A stretch of 64,000 bases of DNA from Acidimicrobiia bacterium (GTDB lineage Bacteria > Actinomycetota > Acidimicrobiia > Spongiisociales > ZC4RG35), in NCBI GenBank assembly GCA_963665765.1, contig OY762464.1, positions 2,601,958-2,665,957 of the forward strand, written 5' to 3'. The notes beneath the pieces are model-generated. The model searched no databases, was not told where the DNA came from, and worked only from the letters and a program-made list of their open reading frames with translations. Position 1 is the first letter of the stretch; each line of letters begins with the position of its first letter. A program made the position numbers and the translations under genes. Shown here in pieces: positions 1 to 54,627 of the stretch.

Positions 1-2254
1 GGCGGTGGCGTCTCGACTGGCCGAATTGTCGTCCGCCGGTGAGCAGCTTCACTCCGAGGAGAGGAGGAGGGAAGCGCAACTGGCCGAACAGCAGAGGGCG
101 TTGGCCCGGTGGGGCAGGGAGATGGACCGGGTCAAGGCCGAGGTGGTGGAACAAAGGCGGGCTCTGCGGGCCGCCGAGGCCCGGGCTGCTTCGGCCCGGG
201 CGACGATGGCGGAGGCGCAGGGAAAGCGGGAAGCCGCCCGGCGCACCTTGAATCCGGGTGATTCCGACCGCCGGAAGCGATTGGAGTCGCTCACCGGCTG
301 GGCGGGATGGGTCTCCGAGATTCTCCAAGCGCCCCCGGAGTTGGCCGCCGCGGTGGAGGCCGGGCTGGAGGGATGGGCTGAGGCGGCGGCCTTTGAGGGT
401 CCGGTGGCCCTGGGCAACGCGTTGGAAAGGCTGGGAAAGATCCCCGAGGAACAGGGACCGGTGTCGATGGTGAGCGCCCGTTTTCCCGGGGTGGCCGACC
501 TTCCGGCTCGGACCGTGGCCGCCTCGGGCAGCCGGGTGACGCCCTTGGTGGATCTGGTGACCGATGGTGAACAGTTCGCTTTGGCCGCTCGCCTGCTGGG
601 TGATGTGGTCCTGGTGGAGAACTGGAGAAGCGGTTGGGAGGTGGTGGGAAGTCATCCGCGCCTGCGGGCGGTGACCCGACAGGGAGATCTGATCACATTG
701 CGCGGGATTTCCCGGGGTGGGCGGAACCGTCTGCCCGATCTGGTGGCGGCCAACGCCGAGGCCGAAGCGGCGACCGTGGCTTTCCGGTCCCTCCGCATCA
801 AGGTGAAGAGCCTGCGGGCCGCGGCGGAGTCACTGGACGAGAGTCGCGAGAAGCAGTTCAGCAGTCTGCAACTCGGTCGTCAGAAAATGCTGGAATCCCA
901 ACGGGAGGTCGAACGGATCGCGGCGCGTCGCCGGGAGATCGACCACGAAAAGGGCCGTTTGAGAAGGCGTCTGGAATCTTTGATGCAGGCCGAAGCCGCC
1001 CGGGCGCGGCGTTTGGCCGAGTTGGAAGACCATATCACCCGACTGGAAGGCCGGTCGGCGACGCCCGATGAGTCGGACAGGCTTGCCCGACGGTTGGAAG
1101 AGACCTCCCGCGCCCGGGCGGCGGCCGAGGAGGAGTACCGGTCCGGGAGCGCGGCGCTCACCGGACTGGCGGAGCGCCGCCGGCTGGAAAGAGCCAGATA
1201 CGAGCAGTTGGCGGTGGAGGTGGCGGAGATGTCGCGGCTTTCCGACGGCTTTTCGGCAGGATGGTCGGAGGAGGTGTCGGAGATTGCCGCCGCGGCGCTA
1301 CGGCTGATGGCGACCCATCGCGCCTCGTTGGTCGAGCTGGACCGGGCTTCCCGACGGCGCGCTCGGGCCCTGGGGGAGGAGGCCACCGAAGCGAGGAGGG
1401 AAATCAGCCGCTCCGATCAGCAGGAGCGGGAGGCCACCGGTCATTTGGAGACGCTGATCTCCGAGATTTCCCGTCTGGAAGCCCATCGTCAAACCACCGT
1501 GGAAGCACTGTGGGAGATGGGCGCCGATCCTGCCCAGGCGGTCGGCGCGCCCCGGCCCGAGATCAGTGATCCAACGGCGGCCCTGGCCTCGGGGGTGGCC
1601 GAATTGGAGCGGATGAGGCCCATCAATCCCTATGCCGCCGCCGACCTCGCCGCCCTGGAGGAAGAGTTGTCGAAACTGTGCGACCAGCGGGATGACATCG
1701 TGGGGACCGATCGACGCCTGGGAAAAGTGATCTCCGAATTGGAGAAGGAAGCCACCGAGCGGTATCTGGCCACCTTCCGGGAGACCGCCAGAGCATTCGA
1801 GCAGGCCTTCGGGCAGGTGTTTCCCGGGGGGCGGGGGAGGCTTCGCATCGTTGATCCGGCGGATCCGCTCGGCTCGGGAGTGGAGATCCATGCTCGACCG
1901 CAGGGCAAGCGGGTGTCTCGGCTGAGCCTGTTGTCGGGAGGGGAACGGGCACTGGGCGCTCTGGCTTTTCTGTTCGCTCTGATGAGAACGCGGCCCTCTC
2001 CCTTCTATCTGCTGGATGAGATGGACGCCAGCCTGGACGCGGCCAACCTGTATCGGGTGTTGCAGGTGGTCCGCCAACTTCGCTCCCATGCCCAAATCCT
2101 GATCATCACCCATCAACCGCAGACCGCCGAGTTCGCCGAGGTGCTGTATGGGGTCACCATGCCGCCGGGAGGAACCACCCAGGTGGTCTCCCGCCGCATG
2201 GAACGAACCGAGGCTCCGGTCGAGGCATTCCCGGCCCAGGGCCGCTCCGCGTAG
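1..2254 (+). CDS. smc: Chromosome segregation protein SMC, C-terminal portion (5' end lies outside the window)
   Basis: Long coiled-coil region followed by the ABC signature/Walker B block LSGGERALGALAFLFAL...FYLLDEMDASLD and a D-loop/H-loop (ILIITHQ). The ORF is open at the window start. Confidence 0.85.
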   Translation, partial: AVASRLAELSSAGEQLHSEERRREAQLAEQQRALARWGREMDRVKAEVVEQRRALRAAEARAASARATMAEAQGKREAARRTLNPGDSDRRKRLESLTGWAGWVSEILQAPPELAAAVEAGLEGWAEAAAFEGPVALGNALERLGKIPEEQGPVSMVSARFPGVADLPARTVAASGSRVTPLVDLVTDGEQFALAARLLGDVVLVENWRSGWEVVGSHPRLRAVTRQGDLITLRGISRGGRNRLPDLVAANAEAEAATVAFRSLRIKVKSLRAAAESLDESREKQFSSLQLGRQKMLESQREVERIAARRREIDHEKGRLRRRLESLMQAEAARARRLAELEDHITRLEGRSATPDESDRLARRLEETSRARAAAEEEYRSGSAALTGLAERRRLERARYEQLAVEVAEMSRLSDGFSAGWSEEVSEIAAAALRLMATHRASLVELDRASRRRARALGEEATEARREISRSDQQEREATGHLETLISEISRLEAHRQTTVEALWEMGADPAQAVGAPRPEISDPTAALASGVAELERMRPINPYAAADLAALEEELSKLCDQRDDIVGTDRRLGKVISELEKEATERYLATFRETARAFEQAFGQVFPGGRGRLRIVDPADPLGSGVEIHARPQGKRVSRLSLLSGGERALGALAFLFALMRTRPSPFYLLDEMDASLDAANLYRVLQVVRQLRSHAQILIITHQPQTAEFAEVLYGVTMPPGGTTQVVSRRMERTEAPVEAFPAQGRSA

Positions 2255-2305
2255 GAGCAAGGTGGGTTGCTATCGGGCCGGTGAGCCTGCCCGTGGGTCT
2301 TCGGG

Positions 2306-4105
2306 GTGGTCGCAAGGGTGGGTGTCACAGGCGCTCGGTATTCTGAAAGTGTCCCGCAGAAGGCGTTGGCTACGGGTGGAGCGATGGAAATAGCAATGGA
2401 ATCGGTGGGCAGGGTGCTGGGCACCGATGAGTCGACCCCTCTGGCCTTTTGGGTAGGGGTGGCCGAGGATCAGCATCTGCAACTTGACGACATCGTGGCG
2501 GTTGATCGGATCCTGCCGACCGGAGAGATCATTTCGATCTTTGGAGTGGTCGGGCAGATGCGCGCCCGCTATGAGGGCGCCCGGTTCGACTCGGATGTGT
2601 TCTTGATCGCCTCGGGGATTCTGCCGGCCGACGTGTCGGAGGCAGCGCAGGTTCAGGTAACGCGGATCGTGCCGGAAACCTTCGTTCCGCCCTTGCCGGG
2701 GTCCGAGGTGCGTCGGGCGGTCGGCGACGAACGGGACGCCGCCCTTGACATGACCGAGGTGGAACGAAAGTTGCCGGCCGGCCTGACCCGGGACGGACGG
2801 CAGGCGGTCATGCTCGACCTCGATTTCCTGGACGGCACCAAGGGCGCCCATGTCAATATCTCAGGAATCTCGGGGGTCGCCACCAAAACCAGTTACGCAA
2901 CGTTCCTGCTCTACTCCCTGTTCAATTCGGGTGTGCTGGGCGCCGCCGCGGCCAATACCAAGGCCCTCATCTTCAACGTCAAGGGCGAAGACCTGCTCTT
3001 CTTGGACCATCCCAACAACCGCCTGGACGAAGAACAGCGGTCACACTACGCAACGTTGGGACTGCAGGCCGCGCCCTTCCGGTCACTTCGGATCCTTGCT
3101 CCACCACGCATCGGCGACCCCAATGGCACACCCCATACCGGCGCTCGGGTTACCGGTGTTCGCCCCATGTACTGGACGGTTGCCCAGTTCTGCCGGCAAG
3201 GGCTATTGCCCTTTTTGTTCGCCGACGCCGAAGACGAACGACAGCAGTACACGATCGTGGTGCATTCGGTCGCCGCCCAGTTGGAACGCCACGCCAAGAA
3301 TTTCAACCCTTCTGACGGTGCGGTCCGTATCGACGGCCGGACGGCCCGCACGTTTTCCCAGCTGGTCGAGATCATCTGCGACAAGCTCCTCCCCGAAGAC
3401 CCCGACACTCCCCCCGACCCCCTGTGGACCGGACGATCGGTCCACACCGGGACGATCAGGGCGTTCGTGCGCCGGCTCTCATCGTCCGAGCGCCACGTTG
3501 CCCATCTGATCAGGGCCGATATCGACAACGCCGAAACCCATGCTCTGGACCTCGACTCCCAGCAGGTCACGGTGGTCGACCTGCACCTGCTCCACGACCG
3601 AGCGAAGCGGTTTGTGGTTGGGGTGGTGCTCCGACAAGCGTTTGAGGCCAAGGAACAATCCGGTACGGCCGAGCCCCTGCAATTCGTGGTGCTCGACGAA
3701 TTGAACAAATACGCCCCGCGGGCGTCGTCGAGCCCCATCAAGGAAATTCTGCTGGATGTGGCCGAGCGGGGTCGCAGCCTGGGAGTCATTCTGATCGGCG
3801 CCCAGCAGACCGCCAGCGAAGTGGAACGGCGGATCGTTTCCAATTCGGCGGTGCGGGTGGTGGGTCGGTTGGATACCGCCGAGGCCGGACGCGAGCAGTA
3901 TGGTTTCTTGCCCGCCGCCCAACGCCAACGGGCCACGATCCTCAAACCCGGCGCCATGTTCGTCTCCCAGCCGCGCCTTCCGGTGCCGGTGCTGGTCGAG
4001 TTTCCTTTTCCGGCATGGGCCACCCGGTTCGCCGAAGCCGATCTGGACGGAGGGATCGGCGGGCGGGGCGGTCAGCCTGACGACCCATGGGATGGTCTGA
4101 TTTGA
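2306..4105 (+). CDS. herA: HerA/FtsK-class (DUF87-like) ATPase; true start may be the internal Met near 2384
   Basis: Walker B hhhhDE (FVVLDELNKYAP) and an arginine-finger/sensor block (RSLGVILIGAQQTASEV) typical of HerA/VirB4/FtsK ATPases. P-loop region GISGVATKTS is deviant. Sits first in an operon with sbcD-sbcC and a NurA-like gene. Confidence 0.65.
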   Translation: MVARVGVTGARYSESVPQKALATGGAMEIAMESVGRVLGTDESTPLAFWVGVAEDQHLQLDDIVAVDRILPTGEIISIFGVVGQMRARYEGARFDSDVFLIASGILPADVSEAAQVQVTRIVPETFVPPLPGSEVRRAVGDERDAALDMTEVERKLPAGLTRDGRQAVMLDLDFLDGTKGAHVNISGISGVATKTSYATFLLYSLFNSGVLGAAAANTKALIFNVKGEDLLFLDHPNNRLDEEQRSHYATLGLQAAPFRSLRILAPPRIGDPNGTPHTGARVTGVRPMYWTVAQFCRQGLLPFLFADAEDERQQYTIVVHSVAAQLERHAKNFNPSDGAVRIDGRTARTFSQLVEIICDKLLPEDPDTPPDPLWTGRSVHTGTIRAFVRRLSSSERHVAHLIRADIDNAETHALDLDSQQVTVVDLHLLHDRAKRFVVGVVLRQAFEAKEQSGTAEPLQFVVLDELNKYAPRASSSPIKEILLDVAERGRSLGVILIGAQQTASEVERRIVSNSAVRVVGRLDTAEAGREQYGFLPAAQRQRATILKPGAMFVSQPRLPVPVLVEFPFPAWATRFAEADLDGGIGGRGGQPDDPWDGLI

Positions 4106-4116
4106 GGCCGGCTTAA

Positions 4117-5280
4117 GTGAGGCTGCTTCACACTTCCGACTGGCATGTCGGAAAAGCCATCCGAGGGATTTCCCGGGCGGATGAGCATCGGGCGGTACTG
4201 GCGGAGGTCGCCCTGATCGCCGAGCAGGAAGAGGTTGATCTGGTGATCGTCGCCGGTGATGTGTTCGACTCGTCGGCGCCCACCGCCGAAGCAGAAGAAA
4301 TTGTTTATCAGGCTCTCCTCAACCTCTCCGAGACCGGAGCCGAGGTGGCGATGATCGCCGGCAATCATGACAATCCCCGCCGGTTGCGGGCGATTACGCC
4401 CCTTTTGCGGCTCGGGCGGGTGCATGTGGTTGCCGAGCCAACCCGACCCGACGACGGGGGCGTCCTCCCATTGAGAGCTCGTAGCGACCGAAGCGAGATT
4501 CGTCTGGCGATGCTCCCCTTCGTATCCAAGCGCGGCATCGTGCGCGCCAAAGACCTCATTGGCAACCAAGCCTTCGAGCACGCCCAGCAGTACAGCGAGC
4601 GTATGCGCCTGCTGATTGCGGCGCTGTGCGATTCGTTCCGGGGTGACACCGTCAACCTGCTCACCGCCCACACTTTCGTGCTGGGTGGCGCGATGGGAGG
4701 CGGCGAACGACCGGCCCACCTGGTTGAAGAATATGCCGTTATGGCACAGTCCTTCCCGGTGGCGACCATGAGCTACGGGGCGCTCGGTCATCTCCACCGG
4801 CCCCAACGGGTCGGACCGGCGCTCTATTACTGCGGTTCTCCGCTGCAACTTGACTTCGGCGAAACCGATCAGACCAAACAAGTCAATATCGTCACCTTGG
4901 AACCGGGCCTACCAGCCGATGTCCAAGCCGCGCTGCTCACCTCGGGGCGGCCGCTTCGGACACTGAGCGGGACGCTCGACGAACTTGCCTCGATGAGCAC
5001 CCAAGACGATGCCTGGCTGAGGGTGGTCGTGAAAGGTCCGGGCCGGGCAGACCTGGCTCGGACTGTGCGCCAAGTACTCGGCCCCGGCGTGGTCGACGTA
5101 CGGGTGGAATCACCCCAAACGGCCGGCAGGCAACGGCGATTCGATCATCGCAGCCACTCGCCACAAGAGTTGTTCGGTGAGTATCTCACGCACCAGAATG
5201 TCAAAGACACCCGGGTCAGTGACCTGTTCGGTGAGCTGTTGGACGTCCACGGCGACGGGCCGGCGGGACGGCAGTCATGA
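4117..5280 (+). CDS. sbcD: DNA double-strand-break repair nuclease SbcD/Mre11 (calcineurin-like phosphoesterase)
   Basis: N-terminal LHTSDWHVGK and VIVAGDVFD, IAGNHD metallophosphatase motifs. Immediately upstream of, and overlapping (ATGA), the Rad50/SbcC gene. Confidence 0.85.
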   Translation: MRLLHTSDWHVGKAIRGISRADEHRAVLAEVALIAEQEEVDLVIVAGDVFDSSAPTAEAEEIVYQALLNLSETGAEVAMIAGNHDNPRRLRAITPLLRLGRVHVVAEPTRPDDGGVLPLRARSDRSEIRLAMLPFVSKRGIVRAKDLIGNQAFEHAQQYSERMRLLIAALCDSFRGDTVNLLTAHTFVLGGAMGGGERPAHLVEEYAVMAQSFPVATMSYGALGHLHRPQRVGPALYYCGSPLQLDFGETDQTKQVNIVTLEPGLPADVQAALLTSGRPLRTLSGTLDELASMSTQDDAWLRVVVKGPGRADLARTVRQVLGPGVVDVRVESPQTAGRQRRFDHRSHSPQELFGEYLTHQNVKDTRVSDLFGELLDVHGDGPAGRQS

Positions 5281-8144
5281 GACCCTTGCAACTATCTATC
5301 AAGGGCTTTGGGGCCTTCCGAGAGCCGACCCACATCGACTTCACCGACATCGACCTGGTAGCGCTGGTGGGCCCCACCGGTTCGGGCAAATCAACCATCA
5401 TCGACGCCATCACCTTCGCGCTGTACGGCACGGTCGCCCGCTACGAAGACAACCGCTTGGTGGCGCCGGCGATCAACCAAACCAGCACCGAGGCTCGGGT
5501 GGCCCTCGACTTCGAGCTCAACCAACAGGTCTACACGGCCGTCCGGGTGGTGCGCCGCACCACCGGCGGTGGGGCAACCACCCGGGAGGCGCGTCTGGAA
5601 CAAGCAGAGCGGGTTCTGGCGGGTGACGCCGCGTCGATGTCGAAAGAGGTTGAGGAGCGGTTGGGACTGAAGGTTGGGCAGTTCAATCGGACGGTGGTGC
5701 TTCCCCAGGGCAAGTTCGCGGCCTTTCTCCACGACAAGCCCGGCGACCGACAAACCACTCTGGTTCGGTTGCTCGGTCTGCAACTGTATCGGCGGATAGG
5801 CCAAGAGGCGCGAAGCAGAAAAGCGAAAGCCGGCAACCATGCCGACGCCCTCCGGTCCGAACATGCCAAAGCAGCCAGGGAGTTGACCGACGAACAGAGG
5901 GTGGGACTGGAGGGCCGCATAGCCGCCCTGGCCGCCGCATCCGAACGGTGGCGCCGCGACCGCGCCCAAATCATGGCTCTCGAAGCCGAAACCGGCGACC
6001 TCAAAGATCGTATCGGGTCGCTGGACGAGAGGATCGATCGCATGAGGGAGATGGCGGCGCCCGCCGACCTGGACGACTTGGCCGATCAGATCACCACCGC
6101 CGAACAGTCTCAGTCAGAGGCAGAGGCACTGCGTTCTGAGTGGAGCGTGATTCGAAGACTGGCGGACCATGCCCTCAAGTCCGGTCCCGACCCCGTCGCC
6201 GTGCAACTGGAACTGAGCATCCACACCGAACTGGCGGAACGAGCCCGGGCTCATCAGATGATCGCCCGGAAACTCTCCGAGTCGATAGCCAAGTACCGGT
6301 CCGCCTCCGGCGAAGCCGATCGAGTCAGAGAAACGCAAGAGGAACTGAAGCGGTGTGTGGAGGAAAACAGAAAGATCGAGGCAGACGCTCGCGCGGCCCG
6401 CGACGCCCAAGTCACAGTTGCGCAAATCGAGGGTTGGGAAAGGTTGCATAACCGTCACCAGGCGGCGGTTGAGAAAGCGTCCGTCATCGATCAAGCCGTC
6501 CGATCCGTCGAGGAGGCGCTGCCGTCGCGGCGCGCGGCCTGCCAAGATACTGCATCAACCGCCGCGGCGACTTCGGCGCGGGTGGCAGATCTTCAGCTCC
6601 GAGCCGGGGTCCTCGGACACCTCGACCTGCTGGAAGTGGGCCAGGACTGCCCGCTGTGTTTGCAGGAAGTATCCCGGTTGCCGGCGCACGACTTCCAAGA
6701 CGCTGATCTCCGCCGGGCCAAGGAACAAAAGGACCTCGCCCAGGCCGCGGCCGCCGCTGCCCAAGAGGCATACAACCAGGCGGTCGTCGAGTTGAAGGGC
6801 CGGCAGGCGGCCGCTTCCTCAGCTCGTTTGGCCGCCCAAAACTGCCAATCCGATGTTGCTTCCCTTCCACCGGCCGAGCAACTCGACGCCCTTTTGGCAG
6901 AAGCGCAGCAGTTGGCCGAGGCCGCGGTCTTGGCAGAAAACGCCACCCAAAAAGCTGAGATCGCCGCTCGGCGGCACCTGTCTTCCCCGGCCTATGCCGA
7001 GGCGCTGGGCACCGAGAAACAAGCCTTTGAACAACAGACCCTCCTCATTGTCGAAGAGCGCACTCTTGAAAAGCAACTGGCGTCCTTGCGGGTCAAAGTA
7101 GATGCTATCCCCGGAGAGGAAGAACTGCGCGCCCGATTGGCGGAGGCCAACCGCTTACGCGCTGAACTGGACGAAGCTGATTCCCAACTACAGAACGCCG
7201 AAGCCCGGCACAAACATGCCGCCGACCAGCTTGGCAAAATGAACAAACGGCGCCAACAGGCGACCGCGCTGCTCAATGCTGCCCGCGATCGAGTGGCGCC
7301 ATTCGGGCCGCCTCCCATCGACCCATCCGATCTGGTGGCTGCCTGGGCAACCCTGACCGATTGGGCCGATGAGCAAACCCGGGCCGCCCGGGTGGAACGG
7401 CGATCCGTCATGGAGAGAAGGTCCGAGCAGGAGAAGCGACGAGCCGGGTTGGCCGAGAGCCTCAGGTCCCTGTGCCATGAGGTGGTGGGCCCAACCGATC
7501 CCCTCGCCGACCCCGAGGAACTCGGCCGTCTGCTGACCGATAATCTGGCTGCCACCAAGACCGAACTCACCCACTTCGACCGACGCATGGTTGAGCTCAA
7601 GGACCTGGAAAAGCGCATCGAAGCGCGGGACGAACAGGCCCGGGTTGCCCACCATCTCGGCCGGTTGCTGCGCACCGACGGCTTCGAGAGATGGCTGATG
7701 GAAACCGCACTCCATCGGTTGGTGGAACAGGCGACCAAGCAACTCTTCGAACTTTCCAACGGTCAGTACTCCCTGGAACTCCATGGAGGCGACTTTTTTG
7801 TCCGAGACCACACCAACGCCGACGAGTTGCGCCGCGCCCGAACGCTGTCAGGTGGCGAGACCTTCCTCGCCTCCCTTTCTCTGGCTCTGGCGCTGGCCGA
7901 CGCCACCGCCGAGATGTCCACCGGAGTGGTTCCGGCCATGGAGTCGATCTTCTTGGACGAAGGATTCGGAACACTCGACCGGCACACCCTCGAAACGGTT
8001 GCCACCGCGGTTGAGGAACTGGGCGCCGGCGGCCGGCTGGTCGGAATAGTCACTCACATCCGGGAACTAGCCGACCGCATGCCGGTGCGACTGGAACTAA
8101 CCAAGACCGGCGGGTCGGCAACGGTCGAACGGATCGATATTTGA
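5277..8144 (+). CDS. sbcC: SbcC/Rad50-family ATPase
   Basis: N-terminal Walker A VGPTGSGKSTIIDAITFALYG, long coiled coil with a central CPLC zinc hook, C-terminal signature LSGGETFLASLSLALAL and Walker B IFLDEGFGTLD. Confidence 0.85.
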   Translation: MRPLQLSIKGFGAFREPTHIDFTDIDLVALVGPTGSGKSTIIDAITFALYGTVARYEDNRLVAPAINQTSTEARVALDFELNQQVYTAVRVVRRTTGGGATTREARLEQAERVLAGDAASMSKEVEERLGLKVGQFNRTVVLPQGKFAAFLHDKPGDRQTTLVRLLGLQLYRRIGQEARSRKAKAGNHADALRSEHAKAARELTDEQRVGLEGRIAALAAASERWRRDRAQIMALEAETGDLKDRIGSLDERIDRMREMAAPADLDDLADQITTAEQSQSEAEALRSEWSVIRRLADHALKSGPDPVAVQLELSIHTELAERARAHQMIARKLSESIAKYRSASGEADRVRETQEELKRCVEENRKIEADARAARDAQVTVAQIEGWERLHNRHQAAVEKASVIDQAVRSVEEALPSRRAACQDTASTAAATSARVADLQLRAGVLGHLDLLEVGQDCPLCLQEVSRLPAHDFQDADLRRAKEQKDLAQAAAAAAQEAYNQAVVELKGRQAAASSARLAAQNCQSDVASLPPAEQLDALLAEAQQLAEAAVLAENATQKAEIAARRHLSSPAYAEALGTEKQAFEQQTLLIVEERTLEKQLASLRVKVDAIPGEEELRARLAEANRLRAELDEADSQLQNAEARHKHAADQLGKMNKRRQQATALLNAARDRVAPFGPPPIDPSDLVAAWATLTDWADEQTRAARVERRSVMERRSEQEKRRAGLAESLRSLCHEVVGPTDPLADPEELGRLLTDNLAATKTELTHFDRRMVELKDLEKRIEARDEQARVAHHLGRLLRTDGFERWLMETALHRLVEQATKQLFELSNGQYSLELHGGDFFVRDHTNADELRRARTLSGGETFLASLSLALALADATAEMSTGVVPAMESIFLDEGFGTLDRHTLETVATAVEELGAGGRLVGIVTHIRELADRMPVRLELTKTGGSATVERIDI

Positions 8145-9091
8145 TGCATTTCAGCGTGGAGTCGTGGGCGCCTCAATACGGAGCTTCGATCACCTCACCG
8201 TCTGCCGAAGACGCCGACCATCAAGTTGATGTCACTGTCGAGCGGCCGCTCCACGATTGGGCCCCGATCGACACGGGGCCGGTCACCATTCCCGATGAGA
8301 TCGTCTTTATCGATGGGATCCAGCGCATCGATGCCCGAATCTGGATCCACCACGACGGCATCCCCATACCGGCCGTTTGCGCCTCCTTAGCGGCCGGGGC
8401 CGTGGTCTGTTGGCCGGACGGAGCGGTGACCGAAGGCGTGCGGATCGCCCGGGCGTTGATCGCGCCGGCCTCCTCGATCGCCACTCCGATTATCACGCGG
8501 CACGCTACCTACGAAATGACCCCCGCCCGGGATGCGACTCCCGAAGCTGCCTATCTGACGATTCACAGCATCCGTCAAGAGCTTGAGACCAGTGTCGCTC
8601 GTTCGATAAATCACGACCTCATCGTATTCGACGGTCCACTGCGGGGACATCACCCCCAGTTCGGGGTGGGCTATGTCAAGACCCACCACAAGATCTACCT
8701 GCCGCAGCAATTGCAGCCGCTGCTCGGCAGCCTCAACGAGGGACAACGAACCCCCATCTTTTTTCTCTCCAGTGGCCCGAGCGGCGCTCGCTGGTCCTGG
8801 TATCTGCGCCTGCCCGGCCCGGCAGTTCACCCTTTGGCCGGGATCGTGCGGCTCGAACTACCCGGTACGGGAAGCGCCGCGGTCGCCGCCCGACGCGCCG
8901 CCTTGGTAAGTTCCAGTCTGCCTCGCTATGCCAGTGAACCCCACAAGGAACCCCGAGCGCCGCAGAACCTATATCCCATTGCCGGCCTCGAGCAACAACT
9001 TAGCCGACGACTCGGGGATCCGTTGCTTTTGGAACGGGCCCTGCGAGTTGCGGCGACACCTCAAAGTCAAAGAACCCGGATCGGATTGTAA
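8141..9091 (+). CDS. Putative NurA-like 5'-3' nuclease (hypothetical; assignment by operon context and DG motifs)
   Basis: Start overlaps the sbcC stop (ATGA). Contains FIDGIQ and LIVFDGPL motifs resembling NurA DGS/DG(S/T)L motifs. Position after rad50 matches the archaeal herA-mre11-rad50-nurA order. Confidence 0.4.
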   Translation: MMHFSVESWAPQYGASITSPSAEDADHQVDVTVERPLHDWAPIDTGPVTIPDEIVFIDGIQRIDARIWIHHDGIPIPAVCASLAAGAVVCWPDGAVTEGVRIARALIAPASSIATPIITRHATYEMTPARDATPEAAYLTIHSIRQELETSVARSINHDLIVFDGPLRGHHPQFGVGYVKTHHKIYLPQQLQPLLGSLNEGQRTPIFFLSSGPSGARWSWYLRLPGPAVHPLAGIVRLELPGTGSAAVAARRAALVSSSLPRYASEPHKEPRAPQNLYPIAGLEQQLSRRLGDPLLLERALRVAATPQSQRTRIGL

Positions 9092-9111
9092 ATGGGTAAG
9101 ATCCAGAGAAG

Positions 9112-9726
9112 GTGATGGCCATGACTGACACCGTGAAGAATGGGAAGGCCGGATTGTATTCCGTCGGCCATTCGAGTCATCCGTTCGAACGCTTTTTAGA
9201 GCTCCTCAGCGAATATGAGATCGAGGTTGTAGCGGATGTGCGCACCTCTCCCTATTCGAGATACAGTCCCCAGTTCGACCAACGAGATCTCCGATACGGC
9301 TTGAGGGAAGTGGGTTTGCACTACATGTTTCTGGGGAAGACGCTGGGAGGCCGTCCTGAGGGGGATCGATTCTATGACTCAGAAGGGCACATTTCTTATG
9401 GTCGGGTAGCTAAAACCGATTGGTTCCGATTGGGACTGAATCGGCTCCGTGAAGGGGGCGCCAAGTTCCGGACAGCCATGCTATGCAGCGAAGAAGACCC
9501 AAAAGATTGTCATCGCTTTCTTCTCGTCACACGTGCTCTCCACACGGTTGGTGAGAAGGTTTCCCACATTCGCGGCGATGGCTCTCTCCAGAGCAGTAGA
9601 GACATCTCCGCATTTGATCCTGAGCACAGGGTGTTCTCTCTATTCGGGGAGGAGGTGAAGAGTTCATGGAGATCTACACGATCGGCTTTACCAAGAAGGC
9701 CGCTGAGGACTTCTTCGCGCTCTTGA
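9112..9726 (+). CDS. DUF488 family protein (paralog 1)
   Basis: YSVGHSSHPFERFLELL...VVADVRTSPYSRYSPQF...CSEEDPKDCHRFLL matches the DUF488 (YeaO-like) pattern. Local GC ~50%, much lower than the flanks. Confidence 0.55.
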   Translation: MMAMTDTVKNGKAGLYSVGHSSHPFERFLELLSEYEIEVVADVRTSPYSRYSPQFDQRDLRYGLREVGLHYMFLGKTLGGRPEGDRFYDSEGHISYGRVAKTDWFRLGLNRLREGGAKFRTAMLCSEEDPKDCHRFLLVTRALHTVGEKVSHIRGDGSLQSSRDISAFDPEHRVFSLFGEEVKSSWRSTRSALPRRPLRTSSRS

Positions 9727-10103
9727 AACAAAATGGCATCCGGCGGCTGGTGGACGTGCGGGTCAGCCCTTCCTCACATTTGGCCGGCTTCGCCAGGCGA
9801 CGTCACCTTGTCTATTTTCTCAGAGATTTGGTGGGCGCAGACTATGTTCATGAGCCGATATTGGCGCCCACCGAAGAACTTCTCAAGTCTTATCGCAACC
9901 GGGAAATAACTTGGGCCGAATACGAGGAAGCCTTCTTGGAACTCCTATCTCAACGCAGGGTCGACAATAAGATTTCGACTGACCTGTTCGCTCTAAGAAC
10001 AGTTCTCTTGTGCAGCGAACCAACCCCTGAGTTCTGCCATCGGCGGCTGGTGATAGATCATCTCGCCCGGCATTGGGGTGATGTGCAAGCTGTTCATTTG
10101 TGA
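9666..10103 (+). CDS. DUF488 family protein (paralog 2)
   Basis: MEIYTIGFTKK...LVDVRVSPSS...LLCSEPTPEFCHRRLV, same family as the upstream gene. Overlaps it by ~60 bp. Confidence 0.55.
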   Translation: MEIYTIGFTKKAAEDFFALLKQNGIRRLVDVRVSPSSHLAGFARRRHLVYFLRDLVGADYVHEPILAPTEELLKSYRNREITWAEYEEAFLELLSQRRVDNKISTDLFALRTVLLCSEPTPEFCHRRLVIDHLARHWGDVQAVHL

Positions 10104-10116
10104 AAAGTGATGTATT

Positions 10117-10818
10117 GTGCGGATCGTTATAAATCATCTGACTCGCATGGAAAAGCCTTATGTGTGCGTGGCGGGAATTCGCTCGGATGGGTTGCATGTC
10201 CGTCCCGTGCTTGAAAGTGGCCGGCTGGGACGTGATCTACTCTGCAGCAGGGGCGGCCCTTTCGCCCTGGGAGCCGTCGTAGACCTTGGTAGCGCACGCC
10301 CACGTCCGGTTGTGCCCGAAGTGGAAGATGTTGTCTGTTCACTATCACGGGTTCGATCGGAGCAAATGTTGAAGGGTGTTACCTTCGGGAACCTCCTGAA
10401 AAGGTCGGCGAAAGCCTCCCTTAGCGAGATCTTTGGTGATGATCTCCTTCGTATGAGCCGAACCGCGACGGCAGTTCCCAAAGGAGCAGGCATCGCTTCT
10501 CTCGGAGTCCTCCAAGTGCGTGGCCGGGTGTCGCTCTTTTCCACTTTATCGTTTGAGAAACCTCAGATAAGATGCACCTTTGCTGACCAGGGTCTTGGTG
10601 AACTATCACTCAAAGTAACCGACCTCCGACTTTGGGAGGTAGATCATAAAACTCCGGTACTATCCCGACTCAAAGCTCTTGAAAGCCGCCTCAGCGACTG
10701 TCTGGTTGCGGTCGGGCTCGGAAGAGCTTATCGTGTTCCCACCTATCCGGGGAGTTGGCACTGGCTTCAGATCAACAACATTTATCCGCTTGAGGACCCG
10801 CTCTGGGCTAGAGAGTGA
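10117..10818 (+). CDS. Hypothetical protein, third gene of the low-GC DUF488 module
   Basis: 233-aa ORF, no motif I recognise, same strand, 13 bp after the second DUF488 gene. Confidence 0.45.
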   Translation: MRIVINHLTRMEKPYVCVAGIRSDGLHVRPVLESGRLGRDLLCSRGGPFALGAVVDLGSARPRPVVPEVEDVVCSLSRVRSEQMLKGVTFGNLLKRSAKASLSEIFGDDLLRMSRTATAVPKGAGIASLGVLQVRGRVSLFSTLSFEKPQIRCTFADQGLGELSLKVTDLRLWEVDHKTPVLSRLKALESRLSDCLVAVGLGRAYRVPTYPGSWHWLQINNIYPLEDPLWARE

Positions 10819-10893
10819 GAACACTACGTGGGCAGCCGGTTGGAGGGGAAGGAAGCCACCGCGGAGGTCTCTGGACTGTGAAGTACGAATAGA

Positions 10894-11874
10894 ATGCCGC
10901 GGGTGGGTTGGCTGAATAGCTGGCGGAAGAGCCGTGGCTCTTCTGGCCCGAAAATATCAAGGGTTCAGGCTGATCCGGCCGTCTCCGCCTTGGCCAAGAC
11001 CCGGGAAGCCTTGTGGGGGGTGCTCCGGTCCATAGCAGGGGGCGACCGTCCGGATCAAGACTTCTGGGACGGATTGGAAGAAGCGTTGGTAGCATCCGAC
11101 ATGGGAGTGGATATCTCCGCCGAGGTGGTGGCGGCGGTACGCATGGGAAAGCCCGGAGACCGAGCCGGAGCGCGGCGTCTGTTGGCCGGGGAGATACGGG
11201 CGCTGTTCGGCGCCGGGCATCGAAACCCGGCGTGGTCAGGTGTCCCGTCTCCGGACTTGGTAGTGGTGATGGTGGTGGGCGTCAACGGAGCGGGGAAGAC
11301 CACCACTGCGGCCAAGATCGCCCACCTGCTGGTCTCCCGCGGTCAGCGGTGTCTCTTGGGCGCGGCGGATACCTATCGGCCCGCCGCGCAACGTCAGCTG
11401 CAAATCTGGACGGAGTCGATCGGGGCGGACATGGTGGGTGGTAGGGAAGGCGCCGATCCGGCGTCCGTGGCCCGCGACGCCTGGTCGGCGGCACAGAGTC
11501 GAGGTCACCAGGTGGTGGTGATCGACACGGCGGGCCGGTTGCATTCCAAGACGCATTTGATGAGCCAGTTGCAAAAGATCAAACGGGTGCTGGTCAAAGC
11601 GGCGGGAAAGGTGGATGAGGTGCTCTTGGTGCTGGACGCGTCGACCGGCCAGAACGGTTTGGCCCAGGCCCGGGAGTTCTGTGACCGGGTGGGAGTGACC
11701 GGGGTGGTGCTCACCAAACTGGACGGAACCGCCCGGGGGGGCGTGGCCGTGGCTGTGGAGCGGAGTCTGGGAGTTCCCATTAAGCTTGTGGGGACCGGTG
11801 AGACGCTTTCGGATCTGGCCCCGTTCTCCGCGGAGAAATTCGTGCAGGCCCTGCTGGGGGAGGAGTCCTCATGA
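10894..11874 (+). CDS. ftsY: Signal recognition particle receptor FtsY
   Basis: SRP GTPase motifs VGVNGAGKTTTAAKIA, VVIDTAGRLH, LTKLDGTARGG. Confidence 0.85.
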   Translation: MPRVGWLNSWRKSRGSSGPKISRVQADPAVSALAKTREALWGVLRSIAGGDRPDQDFWDGLEEALVASDMGVDISAEVVAAVRMGKPGDRAGARRLLAGEIRALFGAGHRNPAWSGVPSPDLVVVMVVGVNGAGKTTTAAKIAHLLVSRGQRCLLGAADTYRPAAQRQLQIWTESIGADMVGGREGADPASVARDAWSAAQSRGHQVVVIDTAGRLHSKTHLMSQLQKIKRVLVKAAGKVDEVLLVLDASTGQNGLAQAREFCDRVGVTGVVLTKLDGTARGGVAVAVERSLGVPIKLVGTGETLSDLAPFSAEKFVQALLGEESS

Positions 11875-12275
11875 TCGGGGATGAGGCCTTGGTGGAAAGA
11901 GCCCGTCGGGCCGCGCTCAACTCCTACTCACCCTATTCGCGGTTCAGGGTGGGCGCCGCCCTCCTGACCGGCGAGGGGGAGGTCCACACCGGCGCCAACG
12001 TGGAGAACGCCGCCTACCCGGTCTCCAACTGTGCGGAGGTCACGGCAGTCAACACGGCGGTTGCCTCGGGAGTCAGAAGCATCGAAACCGTGGCGGTGGT
12101 GTGCCTCGAGGCGGTTTCGATCGACGACTCCTACCCGTGCGGACGTTGCCGGCAGGTGATGAACGAATTCGGGGTGCAGAGGGTGCTGGTGGCGGCGGGT
12201 GAGGGTCCACACCGGGTGCATGCCCTCGCCGAGTTGCTGCCCTATGGGTTTTCGGGCGAGTCCCTGCCGACCTAG
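11871..12275 (+). CDS. cdd: Cytidine deaminase
   Basis: CAEVTAV...PCGRCRQVMNEF zinc-binding CDA motifs, ~134 aa. Confidence 0.8.
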   Translation: MIGDEALVERARRAALNSYSPYSRFRVGAALLTGEGEVHTGANVENAAYPVSNCAEVTAVNTAVASGVRSIETVAVVCLEAVSIDDSYPCGRCRQVMNEFGVQRVLVAAGEGPHRVHALAELLPYGFSGESLPT

Positions 12276-12343
12276 GAACCGGCGGGGGTAAAGAAGGGCC
12301 AACCGAAGGGGGTAGAATTAGGTGGGTCATCGCCCCATGGCAG

Positions 12344-13651
12344 GTGATAAACCCGGCGGAAGGAATCCCCATGATCGACATGCGTCCTCTCTCGGAGGCG
12401 GATCCCCGCACGGCCGGTCTGATCCGTCGCGACGTTGAGCGCCAGAACAGCCACATTCACCTGATTGCTTCCGAGAACTTCGCTTCCCCGGCGGTTATGG
12501 CCGCCTCGGGCTCGATCTTCACCAACAAGTACGCCGAAGGGTATCCGGGACGCCGGTACTACGAGGGCTGTGGGGTGGTGGACGAACTCGAGACTCTGGC
12601 CATAGAGCGAGCGAAGACGCTGTTCGGCGCCGAGGCCGCCAATGTGCAGCCCCATTCGGGCGCCCAGGCCAACATGAGCGTATATTTTTCGCTGTTGAAA
12701 CCGGGAGACCGGGTGCTGGGCATGAGGCTTGACCAGGGTGGGCATCTCACGCACGGCTCGCCGGTCAATTTCTCGGGTCTCTATTACGACTTCGTTGCCT
12801 ACGGGGTGGATCCCGGCACCGAGCAGATCGATATGGACCAGGTGAGAGCATTGGCTCGCCAACATCGTCCCCGAATACTTCTGGCGGGATACTCTGCCTA
12901 TTCCCGGCATCTTGACTATGAAGGGTTCCGGGAGATCGCAGATGAAGTGGGTTCGGTTTTCATGGTGGACGCCGCTCACTTCATCGGGCTGGTGGCCGGC
13001 CGGGCGTATCCCAATCCGGTTGCCTGGGCCGACATTGTCACCGGCACCACCCACAAGGCCTTGCGTGGCCCGCGCGGCGGTTTGGCCCTGGCCAGAGAGG
13101 AATACTCCGGGGCCATCAACAAGGCGGTCTTCCCCAACACCCAGGGTGGGCCGATCATCAACCAGGTGGCCGCCAAAGCGGTGTGCTTTCTGGAGGCATC
13201 CACGCCCGAGTTTCATTCCTACGCCACCCAAATAATTCGCAACGCCGCGGCCATGGCCGACGCCGTGCAGGAATCCGGCGCCCGGGTGGTGTCGGGCGGC
13301 ACTGACAATCACCTGTTTTTGATCGACCTGCGGTCGATCGACGAGGACCTCACCGGCCGGGTGGCCGCCCGTCTGCTGGACGGGTTGGGCATAACGCTCA
13401 ACTTCAACACCATTCCCTTCGATCCCCGCCCTCCCTACCGGGCGTCGGGTCTTCGCATCGGAACCCCCGCCATGACATCTCAGGGCATGACCGAACCCCA
13501 GGCTCAGCAGATAGGTTCTCTGATTGTCAAGGCCCTCCGGGAACGTCACGAACCATCGGTGTTGGGGGACGTGGCCGGCCAAGTTGCGGAGCTGGCTGCT
13601 TCCTTCCCGCCTTACCCGCGCGGTTTTCGAGGATACGGCGATTCCGTATAA
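12344..13651 (+). CDS. glyA: Serine hydroxymethyltransferase
   Basis: LIASENFASPAVMAA...TNKYAEGYPGRRYY...VTGTTHKALRGPRGG (PLP-lysine region). Alternative start at 12371. Confidence 0.9.
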   Translation: MINPAEGIPMIDMRPLSEADPRTAGLIRRDVERQNSHIHLIASENFASPAVMAASGSIFTNKYAEGYPGRRYYEGCGVVDELETLAIERAKTLFGAEAANVQPHSGAQANMSVYFSLLKPGDRVLGMRLDQGGHLTHGSPVNFSGLYYDFVAYGVDPGTEQIDMDQVRALARQHRPRILLAGYSAYSRHLDYEGFREIADEVGSVFMVDAAHFIGLVAGRAYPNPVAWADIVTGTTHKALRGPRGGLALAREEYSGAINKAVFPNTQGGPIINQVAAKAVCFLEASTPEFHSYATQIIRNAAAMADAVQESGARVVSGGTDNHLFLIDLRSIDEDLTGRVAARLLDGLGITLNFNTIPFDPRPPYRASGLRIGTPAMTSQGMTEPQAQQIGSLIVKALRERHEPSVLGDVAGQVAELAASFPPYPRGFRGYGDSV

Positions 13652-21738: not shown

Positions 21739-22281
21739 CCCACTACCGGTTGCCTCATCAGCGCCCCGGCGGAGCTTGTCTAACGTGGAGTTGTACGGAG
21801 CGGTCTCGCGTTCAGCGAGAGCTAGCGCTCGGTCACTGTCGTTTTCGGCTTTGCGTTTCTCAATGTCAGCGATTTGCTTTTCGTCCGCTTTGGCTTGTTT
21901 CTCGCGTTCGGCTTGCTCTCGTGCCTCGGCATCGTTGTCCATACTTTTATCACTTTCGTGTAAGTGGAGACATCATGCTATCACTGCCGTCGTGCCCGCT
22001 GTGCCCACTCGATCAGATCATCACCCATGGAAGCATTTTACCCAAGGGGTATGACAATATCCCCGGTCGTCTACAGGCTTGGGTAATTAGGTATGTAATT
22101 CCCAAACCAAACGTCGGCGACCGTCCCGGACAAGATCTCATCGAGGCGGGCCGGAACAAAAGGAGCGATTTTCCAAGCCGCGCACCGGGGCGCGGGTTTT
22201 CGCGACCAACCCGGATTAGGTGCGGCGGGGGCGGGGAACCCTTTTAGGGGACCGTTGAGACTGCAAAAACTGCCACCTCGG

Positions 22282-31427: not shown

Positions 31428-33944
31428 CTATCCACCCGCAAAGACGTACTCGTCGAGGGATGAGTCGGGTCGGTCGCCGCCGTTGTAGGTGGCGATGCGG
31501 AAGCTGGCTGCGGCGGGTTCGCCGGCGTCTACGAATTCGTAGGGTCCGCCTACTCCGTCGTAGTCGGGGTCGCCGCCGTTTTCGATGATGTCTTTGCAGT
31601 CGGCGAAGCTGGTGCACTTGGTGCCGCCGCGGGTGACGTCGTTGATCTCGGTTCCGATGTCCACCGGGTTGTCGCTGTTGGCGGCCAACGCGGCCAGGGC
31701 CACGATCACGATGGCGTCGTAGGTCTCGGCGCCGTAGGCGTACACCTCGGACAGGCCGCCTTCGTAGGCGCCGTCCAGTCGGGCGGTGAAGTCGGAGATG
31801 GAACTGAGATCCACCGAGGGTTCGGTGCCGCGCATGCCTGTGATGATGGAGGGATCGGAAAGCTCGGCGCCGATACCGCCGATGTTTCCGTCAACTCCGT
31901 ACACGTTGGTGGCGGACGTTGCGCCGATGTTCCGTTCGTGCATGGTCACCAATATGGTGGCCGATTCTTGGAACCCGATCACCACTACCGCGTCGGGGGA
32001 GGCGTCTGCCAACTGGTCGACCTCGGCGTCGAAGTTGTCGGTGCCGGGGGCGTAGGCGATGAACGGATCCACCGTGCCGCCCTGGCTCTCGAAGTTTTCC
32101 TTGAACGAGTCGGCCAGACCCTGCCCGTAGGACTCCTGTCGGTAGATCACCCCGGCGATCTCGTTGCCTTCCGACGCCACCAGGTCGGCCAGGACCTTGC
32201 CCTGCAACAAGTCGGAGGGGGCGGTGCGGAAATACAGGCCGTTGTCGTCGTAGGTGGTGAAGTCGGGGGAAGTGTTGGCCGGGGAGAAGTGGATCACGTT
32301 GTTGCCGGTGATCTTGTCGATCACCAGCTTGGAAACAGCCGAGCTGGCGGCTCCGATGATGGCGTCCACGTCCAAGGCCAGCAGCCGGTCGACCTCGGGG
32401 TTGGCGATGTCCTGGTTGGTGTCGCCGGAGTCTCCCTCATGCAACACCACATCGTTGCCCAACACACCTCCCGCCGAATTGATATCGGCAATCGCCAACC
32501 GGGCGCCCGCCACCTCCGGCGGACCCAAGAAAGCCAAATCACCGGTAACCGGCAACAACGTACCAATCACCAACTGACCGGTGGCCATTTCCGTCATGGC
32601 TGCGCCGTCGTCACCGGACCCGCCGGCGAAGACATATTCATCCAACTCCGGGTCGGGTCGGTCGCCGCCGTTGTAGGTGGCGATGCGGAAGCTGGCTGCG
32701 GCGGGTTCGCCGGCGTCTACGAATTCGTAGGGTCCGCCTACTCCGTCGTAGTCGGGGTCGCCGCCGTTTTCGATGATGTCTTTGCAGTCGGCGAAGCTGG
32801 TGCACTTGGTGCCGCCGCGGGTGACGTCGTTGATCTCGGTTCCGATGTCCACCGGGTTGTCGCTGTTGGCGGCCAACGCGGCCAGGGCCACGATCACGAT
32901 GGCGTCGTAGGTCTCGGCGCCGTAGGCGTACACCTCGGACAGGCCGCCTTCGTAGGCGCCGTCCAGTCGGGCGGTGAAGTCGGAGATGGAACTGAGATCC
33001 ACCGAGGGTTCGGTGCCGCGCATGCCTGTGATGATGGAGGGATCGGAAAGCTCGGCGCCGATACCGCCGATGTTTCCGTCAACTCCGTACACGTTGGTGG
33101 CGGACGTTGCGCCGATGTTCCGTTCGTGCATGGTCACCAATATGGTGGCCGATTCTTGGAACCCGATCACCACTACCGCGTCGGGGGAGGCGTCTGCCAA
33201 CTGGTCGACCTCGGCGTCGAAGTTGTCGGTGCCGGGGGCGTAGGCGATGAACGGATCCACCGTGCCGCCCTGGCTCTCGAAGTTTTCCTTGAACGAGTCG
33301 GCCAGACCCTGCCCGTAGGACTCCTGTCGGTAGATCACCCCGGCGATCTCGTTGCCTTCCGACGCCACCAGGTCGGCCAGGACCTTGCCCTGCAACAAGT
33401 CGGAGGGGGCGGTGCGGAAATACAGGCCGTTGTCGTCGTAGGTGGTGAAGTCGGGGGAAGTGTTGGCCGGGGAGAAGTGGATCACGTTGTTGCCGGTGAT
33501 CTTGTCGATCACCAGCTTGGAAACAGCCGAGCTGGCGGCTCCGATGATGGCGTCCACGTCCAAGGCCAGCAGCCGGTCGACCTCGGGGTTGGCGATGTCC
33601 TGGTTGGTGTCGCCGGAGTCTCCCTCATGCAACACCACATCGTTGCCCAACACACCTCCCGCCGAATTGATATCGGCAATCGCCAACCGGGCGCCCGCCA
33701 CCTCCGGCGGACCCAAGAAAGCCAAATCACCGGTAACCGGCAACAACGTACCAATCACCAACTGACCGTCTGTCATACCCATGTCATCGGGGGTGTCATC
33801 GGGGGCCGCGGTGGTGGCGGGAGTCTGGGTGGTGGGAGTCGCTTCCGTCACTTCGGTCGCTTCGTCGTCTCCGCAGGCGGTCGCCACCAACGCCATGATT
33901 GCCATGATGGCCACCAGCCTGAGATAACTCTTGGTTCTATTCAT
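31428..33944 (-). CDS. Lipoprotein ABC substrate-binding protein, Leu/Ile/Val-binding (LivJ/K-like, PBP type I), internally duplicated into two nearly identical SBP domains
   Basis: Lipobox LVATAC after MNRTKSYLRLVAIMAIMA. The body is LivJ-like (GTLLPVTGDLAFLGPPEVAGARLAIADINSAGGVLG...). The whole ~372-aa domain occurs twice, with DNA identity 100% over 1117 bp. RBS AAGGAAGG before ATG 33944. Confidence 0.85.
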   Translation of the reverse strand: MNRTKSYLRLVAIMAIMALVATACGDDEATEVTEATPTTQTPATTAAPDDTPDDMGMTDGQLVIGTLLPVTGDLAFLGPPEVAGARLAIADINSAGGVLGNDVVLHEGDSGDTNQDIANPEVDRLLALDVDAIIGAASSAVSKLVIDKITGNNVIHFSPANTSPDFTTYDDNGLYFRTAPSDLLQGKVLADLVASEGNEIAGVIYRQESYGQGLADSFKENFESQGGTVDPFIAYAPGTDNFDAEVDQLADASPDAVVVIGFQESATILVTMHERNIGATSATNVYGVDGNIGGIGAELSDPSIITGMRGTEPSVDLSSISDFTARLDGAYEGGLSEVYAYGAETYDAIVIVALAALAANSDNPVDIGTEINDVTRGGTKCTSFADCKDIIENGGDPDYDGVGGPYEFVDAGEPAAASFRIATYNGGDRPDPELDEYVFAGGSGDDGAAMTEMATGQLVIGTLLPVTGDLAFLGPPEVAGARLAIADINSAGGVLGNDVVLHEGDSGDTNQDIANPEVDRLLALDVDAIIGAASSAVSKLVIDKITGNNVIHFSPANTSPDFTTYDDNGLYFRTAPSDLLQGKVLADLVASEGNEIAGVIYRQESYGQGLADSFKENFESQGGTVDPFIAYAPGTDNFDAEVDQLADASPDAVVVIGFQESATILVTMHERNIGATSATNVYGVDGNIGGIGAELSDPSIITGMRGTEPSVDLSSISDFTARLDGAYEGGLSEVYAYGAETYDAIVIVALAALAANSDNPVDIGTEINDVTRGGTKCTSFADCKDIIENGGDPDYDGVGGPYEFVDAGEPAAASFRIATYNGGDRPDSSLDEYVFAGG
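31464..32580. repeat. Copy A of a 1117-bp perfect direct repeat (period 1188 bp) inside the SBP gene
   Basis: Identical to 32652-33768. Duplicated six-frame ORFs at a fixed +1188 offset (31706/32894, 31786/32974, 32254/33442, 32321/33509) confirm it. Confidence 0.9.
32652..33768. repeat. Copy B of the 1117-bp perfect direct repeat
   Basis: See copy A. The 71-bp junction (32581-32651) and the outer flanks are homologous but diverged. Confidence 0.9.
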
Positions 33945-33984
33945 CACTTTGCGCCCTTCCTTTTCTATCACAAACAGTGTGATG

Positions 33985-33998
33985 TCTTGCGTCACGGA
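33985..33998. promoter_or_regulatory. 14-bp perfect palindrome GTTTACAAGTAAAC in the SBP gene 5' region (candidate operator); additional TCACA-N5-TGTGA inverted repeat nearby
   Basis: Seen directly in the sequence, ~45 bp upstream of the SBP start codon on the transcribed strand. Confidence 0.3.
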
Positions 33999-34085
33999 GT
34001 TTACAAGTAAACCAACCGCAATTGTAGGCCGGTCCCCCACCGCCGGAGCCCGGATATGCCCGGCGGCATAACCAGGTACGGGTGT

Positions 34086-52670: not shown

Positions 52671-52743
52671 GGGCGTTTAGCTCAGATGGAAGAGCGCTTC
52701 CCTTACAAGGAAGAGGTCGGCGGTTCGATTCCGTCAACGCCCA
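52671..52743 (+). tRNA. tRNA-Val (anticodon TAC)
   Basis: Manual fold: acceptor GGGCGTT/AACGCCC (7 bp), D-arm GCTC-AGATGGA-GAGC, anticodon arm CTTCC-CTTACAA-GGAAG, variable AGGTC, T-arm GGCGG-TTCGATT-CCGTC, discriminator A. No encoded CCA. Confidence 0.85.
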
Positions 52744-53100
52744 CACCGAGGAGTCTGCGATTTATGACGCTGATAGGCTGTTTTTCCCATTTGGGTTGGT
52801 TTTGGGGGTTTTTGACCGTTTCGGAGGGGGCTGTGGCCTAGCCGGGGGGCTGTTTGGTGGTTGTCGGGACGAGGTTCCCCCGGTTTGGCGGACTGTTTTG
52901 GTTGGTTGTTCATGCCACCAGTTTTTGGTGTTGGTGGCGGTAGTTTACGGGGCTTTGGTAGTTGTTGGGTGAGTGTCCGGCAACGGGATATATAGCAGTG
53001 AACTCAAGGTTCATGGTGAAGGAACTGCCGAGGAGTTCCCGAATCGCCAGCGACAGCCCAGCCTGTCCATCTGCTCACCAAGAAACCTCATGGCGGCAAT

Positions 53101-54621: not shown

Positions 54622-54627
54622 GTCGCG

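Follow-up and report, generated by a model that had tools for sequence, protein, structure and literature searches.

Why should genes for a DNA end-processing machine stand between smc and ftsY, which adjoin one another in a wide range of bacteria, for example B. subtilis and M. tuberculosis? The question is raised by a 64,000-nucleotide (nt) stretch of an Acidimicrobiia genome (contig OY762464.1, positions 2,601,958 to 2,665,957; hereafter the window), where 8639 nt lie between the smc stop and the ftsY start, close to the 8.6 kb given by a sequence-only reading of this DNA. Most of the interval is taken up by four genes, herA, sbcD, sbcC and nurA. We consider it likely that they represent a self-contained, DNA-damage-inducible operon of Actinomycetota for the processing of double-strand-break ends, one that would have landed in the smc-ftsY spacer.

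Composition and distribution of the cassette

The elements of the cassette are as follows.

2323-2344, + strand: PafBC/RecA-NDp-type promoter (candidate), with -26 element TGTCAC (2323-2328), 10-nt spacer and -10 element TATTCT (2339-2344)
2375-2381, + strand: Shine-Dalgarno-like GGTGGAG, read from the sequence, directly 5′ of the herA ATG
2384-4105, + strand: herA, predicted hexameric double-stranded DNA (dsDNA) translocase of the FtsK/HerA class, bacterial (Deinococcus) type
4117-5280, + strand: sbcD, predicted nuclease subunit of the Mre11 family, bacterial type
5277-8144, + strand: sbcC, predicted ABC ATPase of the Rad50 family with coiled coil and zinc hook
8144-9091, + strand: nurA, predicted RNase-H-like 5′-3′ nuclease, bacterial type (mechanical open reading frame 8141-9091)

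The 599-residue open reading frame at 2306-4105 aligned over residues 31-583 to residues 12-606 of the D. radiodurans HerA chain 7f6d_B (E=3e-148). Residues of the D. radiodurans protein (drHerA) with described roles (PMC9960219), namely Walker A K175/T176, D220 and Walker B D487/E488, were identical in the window product (GISGVATKTS, NVKGED, VVLDELN), supporting its earlier designation as a HerA-class ATPase. The anticipated Pfam match of the HerA/DUF87 type did not appear, as no Pfam family reached E<=0.01, and the identity came instead through the PDB sequence search, where no HerA chain besides that of D. radiodurans scored better than E=0.01. NCBIfam returned trivial matches alone (CedB, 15 bits), and the PADLOC HerA models reached only the C-terminal part of the protein (best 8.6e-8). 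The family is large, with at least 8000 clusters at 90% identity and 484 representatives at 50% identity (E<=1e-30). By analogy with the Deinococcus enzyme, the herA product is predicted to be a hexameric dsDNA translocase of the HerA class. Because HerA homologs are 559-586 residues long and the promoter motif at 2323-2344 falls inside the longer frame, the most likely start of herA is ATG 2384 (or ATG 2396) rather than GTG 2306; the start annotated in the database also lies downstream of 2306.

The second product exceeded the cutoff of the SbcD model TIGR00619 (185.7 bits versus 77.65) and carries the Pfam Metallophos and bacterial SbcD_C domains, with phosphoesterase motifs I-VI all present (DWH, GDVFD, GNHD, the histidine in LTAHTF, GHLH). 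Its nearest solved relative was E. coli SbcD (4lty, E=5e-37), and it scored 131 bits against E. coli SbcD versus 35 bits against P. furiosus Mre11; likewise, the NCBIfam sbcd models gave 186-189 bits where the Mre11 models gave 46. The third product matched AAA_23, SMC_N and SbcC_Walker_B, with AAA_23 and SbcC_Walker_B above the Pfam gathering thresholds, and its nearest solved relative was E. coli SbcC (6s6v_C, E=3e-38). It contains a Walker A motif (GPTGSGKST), a mid-protein CPLC zinc hook, an LSGGE signature, a Walker B motif (FLDEGFG) and an H-loop (VTHI). The NCBIfam sbcc model gave 244 bits versus 63 for the Rad50 models, a score below the curated TIGR00618 cutoff of 478.5 bits; judged by these matches, the protein is a divergent and shorter (955-residue) SbcC. 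The agreement of Pfam, NCBIfam and PDB matches bears out the assignment of sbcD and sbcC to the space between the herA and nurA genes, and by the same matches both proteins are clearly of bacterial type.

The fourth product, of 316 residues, had been proposed to be NurA-like from its "DG" motifs. Both motifs are present (FIDG, VFDGPL), and the protein passed the Pfam NurA model PF09376 over residues 152-277 (27.3 bits versus a gathering score of 21), matched D. radiodurans NurA (drNurA) chain 7f6d_H at E=2e-22 and also matched Thermotoga TM1739. Equivalents of drNurA D53, K201 and R309, whose roles have been described (PMC9960219), are kept in the aligned pairs FIDG/VVDG, GYVKT/GYVKT and PRAPQN/SRAPQN (chain numbering offset by 20, as deduced from the tag), and a tryptophan occupies position 8 from the ATG, as does W8 of drNurA. 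Many homologs of the protein carry a precomputed PF09376 match. By analogy, the nurA product is a predicted 5′-3′ nuclease.

The four genes lie close together on one strand. Coupling through ATGA overlaps had been claimed for the cassette, and the overlap of the sbcD stop with the sbcC start at 5277-5280 is indeed ATGA. The second proposed overlap, at 8141-8144, is really TTGA/TGATG: at this TTGATG junction the sbcC TGA (8142-8144) and the nurA ATG (8144-8146) share 1 nt. Between the herA TGA and the sbcD GTG there is an 11-nt gap and no overlap. Tight translational coupling, as predicted from these junctions, still stands for two of the three.

To establish how widely the cassette occurs, metagenomes were scanned with a HerA alignment, giving 80 loci with HerA 61-83% identical, which together with 4 earlier loci makes about 84. 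Counting only loci with enough downstream sequence, sbcD followed herA in 67/73, sbcC lay downstream of herA in 48/49 and nurA in 31/34. Order and strand (herA>sbcD>sbcC>nurA) were constant among related loci, a few of which have extra intergenic DNA, and the identical order was found in Nonomuraea gerenzanensis and in Streptomyces sp. BB1-1-1, where a linear plasmid carries it. On these counts herA-sbcD-sbcC-nurA is a conserved and common module of Actinomycetota. The sequence-only reading had described bacterial HerA/NurA as rare and the arrangement inside the smc-ftsY locus as unusual; "rare" was an overstatement for a cassette common in Actinomycetota, whereas the smc-ftsY site is indeed limited to this species and its sister. 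A literature search for an actinobacterial herA-sbcDC-nurA operon found none, and a mention in early (2004) comparative papers is possible.

At one related locus (L008, 8213-10918) a nurA homolog (53% identical) comes after a DUF222-HNH endonuclease gene and a short piece of sbcC, with no herA or sbcD within 10 kb of it. This locus looks like a cassette broken up by a mobile HNH element.

A candidate PafBC promoter upstream of herA

Forty nt 5′ of the herA ATG, in the sense orientation, is the motif TGTCACAGGCGCTCGGTATTCT (2323-2344), which reads TGTCAC-AGGCGCTCGG-TATTCT. The PafBC consensus is tGTCgg(N10)tA(N3)T, spanning 22 nt with -26 and -10 elements, and its GTC and TA...T bases are almost absolutely conserved across actinobacteria (PMC8635444). 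The 22-nt spacing of the herA motif is exact, and it departs from this mycobacterial consensus solely at the lower-case "gg" (AC here). In the window, on both strands, the pattern TGTCR-N11-TANNNT occurred 3 times versus 0.96 expected. The other two matches, at 22035-22056 (-) and 61051-61072 (+), stand before no gene recognisable as a repair gene and probably arose by chance.

An equivalent motif stands at about equal distance upstream of herA in two relatives at unrelated genomic sites (L003, L004). Across 80 distinct herA upstream regions, compared with random segments of the same loci, the strict pattern (TGTCR-N11-TANNNT) was found in 25/80 versus 0.33% of random segments and 0 on the opposite strand, and the relaxed pattern (GTC-N12-TANNNT) in 32/80 versus 0.59% and 1 on the opposite strand; these regions are related to one another, and kinship inflates the counts. 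The consensus across relatives was cTGTCACA...TAc..T. Many relatives have an ATG 8-11 nt beyond the -10 element, as expected for leaderless actinobacterial mRNAs. In ten of them (L055-L059, L063-L065, L068, L087) the ATG at this distance looks in frame, which suggests a leaderless herA mRNA and a HerA N-terminus slightly longer than that in the window.

No LexA SOS box was found upstream of herA, and the count of such boxes across the window was at chance level. The region 2000-12500 yielded neither a convincing intergenic terminator nor a convincing sigma-70 promoter, and no Rfam family was found near the locus. We infer that the herA operon is regulated by PafBC and regard this as well supported by the motif. 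The mycobacterial PafBC regulon (PMC8635444, PMC6789036) shares with it the 22-nt bipartite -26/-10 element, the identical spacing and the GTC triplet, but has no herA, nurA or sbcCD members in the literature searched, and no report of PafBC control of herA, nurA or sbcCD was found.

Placement between smc and ftsY

The borders of the insertion site and the genes between the cassette and ftsY are these.

5-2254, + strand: smc (3′ part; TIGR02168, SMC_N and SMC_hinge matches), upstream border of the insertion site
9121-9726, + strand: DUF488 gene (Pfam match)
9666-10103, + strand: DUF488-N3a gene (Pfam match)
10117-10818, + strand: DuOB gene (Pfam match)
10894-11874, + strand: ftsY (TIGR00064, 277 bits versus a cutoff of 260.7), downstream border of the insertion site
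11871-12275, + strand: cdd, downstream of ftsY

The claim that the cassette was inserted was tested against five syntenic Acidimicrobiia relatives that lack it and one sister genome. Metagenome-assembled genomes of Acidimicrobiia are the closest relatives that bear a name. Three of the relatives (L009, L010, L011; FtsY 76-80% identical) keep the recG...rnc-fpg-smc-ftsY-cdd-glyA-atp synteny without the cassette. Two outgroups (L096, L097; FtsY 57-58% identical) keep rnc-fpg-smc-ftsY-cdd, with smc and ftsY 36-47 nt apart. In L010 (9534-9907) and L011 (9479-9868) the smc-ftsY spacer is an apparently non-coding stretch of about 0.4 kb with a guanine-plus-cytosine (GC) content of 0.58-0.60, below that of its flanks, and in L009 a lone DUF488 gene (63% identical) lies between smc and ftsY. 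Only the sister genome L001 (about 97% identical; proteins 95-99%) has the cassette at the same site. At the 84 other cassette loci neither smc nor ftsY was found within 10 kb, and the flanks of the closest cassette homologs share nothing with the window. Because five syntenic relatives have smc and ftsY without the cassette, and close cassette homologs sit elsewhere, comparative gene order bears out the reading that, in this Acidimicrobiia lineage, herA-sbcD-sbcC-nurA was inserted into the smc-ftsY spacer. Two outcomes had been named beforehand as counting against the sequence-only reading, a fourth gene unrelated to NurA and relatives with the same genes at this locus; in the event the fourth gene is NurA and the relatives are without the cassette.

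The cassette is bordered by neither direct nor inverted repeats, and no integrase or transposase was found next to it. GC is 0.62-0.635 in the cassette, with third-position GC of 0.69-0.77, and the window mean is 0.61. Since the two are close, the cassette probably came from a related genome or from another site of the same genome.

The remaining 1.7 kb of the insert (9112-10818) is the DUF488, DUF488-N3a and DuOB trio, with a GC of 0.53-0.55, clearly below that of the cassette. The trio lies beside the cassette only in this species and is absent next to it in all other loci; it is separate and not part of the resection machine. Its two DUF488 proteins match components of the PADLOC candidate system PDC-M45 (B, 1e-53; C, 2e-56), while component A has no counterpart among the genes and DuOB matches nothing in PADLOC even at E<=10. 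A search for literature on PDC-M45 found none. Because L009 has a single DUF488 gene at the same position, the smc-ftsY spacer of this lineage looks like a hot spot for insertion.

Other parts of the window have features of their own. Beyond a tRNA-Val gene (52671-52744), the GC falls to 0.53-0.58 for about 11 kb, up to position 64000, in a stretch that holds an AAA_15/AAA_21 ATPase (53101-54621; PADLOC PD-T4-4_A, 5e-24, plus AriA/GajA-like matches), a transposase helix-turn-helix open reading frame (61033-61431, -) and an SLH-domain protein (61857-63983, -). The whole of 52671-64000 looks like a tRNA-associated genomic island. In a low-GC patch at 40-44 kb, an AAA_14-DUF4143 ATPase (40554-42566) matches the PADLOC single-gene candidate PDC-S01 (E=9e-119). 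An 870-residue open reading frame (31428-34040, -) contains two Peripla_BP_6 solute-binding modules and a direct DNA repeat with 1188-nt spacing (96% identity over 300 nt, with more identical 16-mers at equal spacing); it represents a tandem duplication/fusion or else an artefact of assembly.

A proposed end-processing operon and its alternatives

In the model that we propose, DNA damage would activate PafBC, which would adapt RNA polymerase-SigA to the -26/-10 hybrid promoter at 2323-2344; here the motif is seen and the regulation deduced. A single mRNA would then supply HerA, SbcD, SbcC and NurA, with the tight junctions that we observed favouring coupled translation. SbcCD, the bacterial Mre11-Rad50, would recognise and trim ends, hairpins and blocked termini. 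A HerA hexamer with a NurA dimer would, as in the D. radiodurans NurA-HerA model, pump the duplex into NurA, where it would be unwound and its 5′ strand degraded, and this resection would leave a 3′ tail for RecA. The SbcCD and HerA-NurA steps are proposed by homology with known systems of E. coli, D. radiodurans and archaea (PMC9960219, PMC3326311, PMC4351679).

Each of these systems resembles the cassette in part. D. radiodurans NurA-HerA (PDB 7F6D), which resects DNA ends, is alike in near full-length HerA (E=3e-148), in NurA (E=2e-22) and in the key residues of both, but its nurA and herA form an operon of their own (PMC9960219), and the link of Deinococcus HerA-NurA to SbcCD has been described as yet to be uncovered (PMC4663267). 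The archaeal herA-mre11-rad50-nurA operon of Sulfolobus and Thermococcales (PMC4351679, PMC3326311) has the four functions of the cassette in identical order, with a proposed division of labour in which Mre11-Rad50 acts at the end and HerA-NurA carries out long 5′ resection; pull-down of HerA with Mre11 has been reported for archaea. The cassette had accordingly been called an archaeal-order operon, and the order does match (PMC4351679). However, all four proteins in the window are nearest to bacterial proteins, and the promoter is of an actinobacterial type. Since SbcCD is E. coli-like and HerA/NurA are Deinococcus-like, the "archaeal" label fits the gene order only, and since every part is of bacterial type, the likeness is one of architecture and not of recent archaeal import. 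Linkage of bacterial HerA-NurA to bacterial SbcCD has been noted once, in Oceanithermus profundus, as nurA-hepA(herA)-sbcD-sbcC (PMC5448004). We found nurA-herA-sbcD-sbcC on a cyanobacterial conjugative plasmid (L095) as well; in both of these nurA comes first, whereas in Actinomycetota it comes last.

Several observations weigh against a damage-inducible end-processing operon. A double knock-out of nurA and herA gave D. radiodurans roughly 10-fold higher resistance to mitomycin C and to far-UV at high dose (PMC9960219), whereas loss of hepA (herA) made Thermus more UV-sensitive (PMC5448004); because these phenotypes differ, the physiological role of bacterial HerA-NurA is ambiguous. Under the pattern used, about 60% of relatives have no match to the promoter motif, the regions upstream of herA in relatives do not count as independent samples, the motif has AC in place of the two weakly conserved "gg" bases of mycobacteria, and no pafBC was seen within the 64-kb window. 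The cassette also occurs on plasmids and, in some genomes, beside defence-like genes. The promoter points would also suit a repair machine whose TGTCAC-N10-TATTCT motif serves as an ordinary promoter or binds a different regulator: the TGTCACA consensus across relatives may reflect a lineage-specific factor, and the presence of PafBC in the host is an assumption. We nevertheless regard this as unlikely, given the exact 22-nt spacing, the agreement with bases that are near-absolutely conserved (PMC8635444), the strong strand-specific enrichment upstream of herA and the lack of a LexA box there. The plasmid and defence-gene associations would suit a cassette that is primarily anti-plasmid or anti-phage, with SbcCD and HerA-NurA destroying linear or foreign DNA and the smc-ftsY gap serving as a small defence islet. 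Such a role is compatible with the adjoining DUF488 genes that match PDC-M45 B/C, with the variety of loci, with domain-level matches of SbcC and HerA to LmuB and mad3/mad8 models and with the genome-guarding HerA-NurA role suggested for archaea (PMC3326311). On the Streptomyces plasmid (L093, 1-7325), moreover, TIGR02680, TIGR02678, DUF2397 and ImmA/IrrE peptidase genes flank the cassette upstream on the opposite strand, surroundings that are defence-island-like. We give it little credence, however, as the HerA and SbcC PADLOC matches are weak and NurA has none, the DUF488/DuOB genes join the cassette only in this species, the enriched motif would belong to a DNA-damage regulon and the nearest characterised homologs perform end resection (PMC9960219).

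The location itself admits two further explanations, each of which we judge very improbable. In one, smc-herA-sbcDC-nurA-ftsY would be ancestral and the cassette deleted in the relatives, so that no insertion took place. The comparison does rest on five genomes, and the cassette is not compositionally foreign to the window; but smc adjoins ftsY in all five, the two outgroups included, none of the 84 other cassette loci lies within 10 kb of either gene, and adjacency of the pair is widespread in bacteria. In the other, the location is functional: HerA, co-expressed with smc, would be a DNA pump acting with SMC in segregation or division (the FtsK-HerA hypothesis). The cassette does lie on the smc strand after a 130-nt gap with no terminator predicted between them, and work cited in PMC4663267 proposes that HerA takes part in segregation. 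Against this, the smc linkage is confined to this species and its sister, the cassette appears to have its own promoter, and its conserved partners are nucleases.

An end-processing operon of Actinomycetota that landed in this spacer therefore remains the reading that we prefer. More tentatively, and with considerable doubt, the cassette might be a horizontally mobile, PafBC-controlled module that reached the archaeal architecture independently with bacterial parts, and that perhaps is the main machine for break resection in lineages like Acidimicrobiia. If that were true, bacteria would have a fourth resection system besides RecBCD, AddAB and AdnAB, and the PafBC regulon would gain a new branch.

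To our knowledge, bacterial HerA-NurA has been studied in Deinococcus and Thermus alone, where it is not linked to SbcCD. Current ideas are not overturned by the present locus, as the parts and the operon concept were already known; what appears new against the literature searched is the actinobacterial four-gene operon and its PafBC-type promoter. A conserved operon that joins HerA-NurA to SbcCD, in the archaeal order and behind a putative damage promoter, would provide a genomic argument for cooperation of the four proteins in bacteria, and Nonomuraea and Streptomyces are culturable carriers in which this cooperation is testable.

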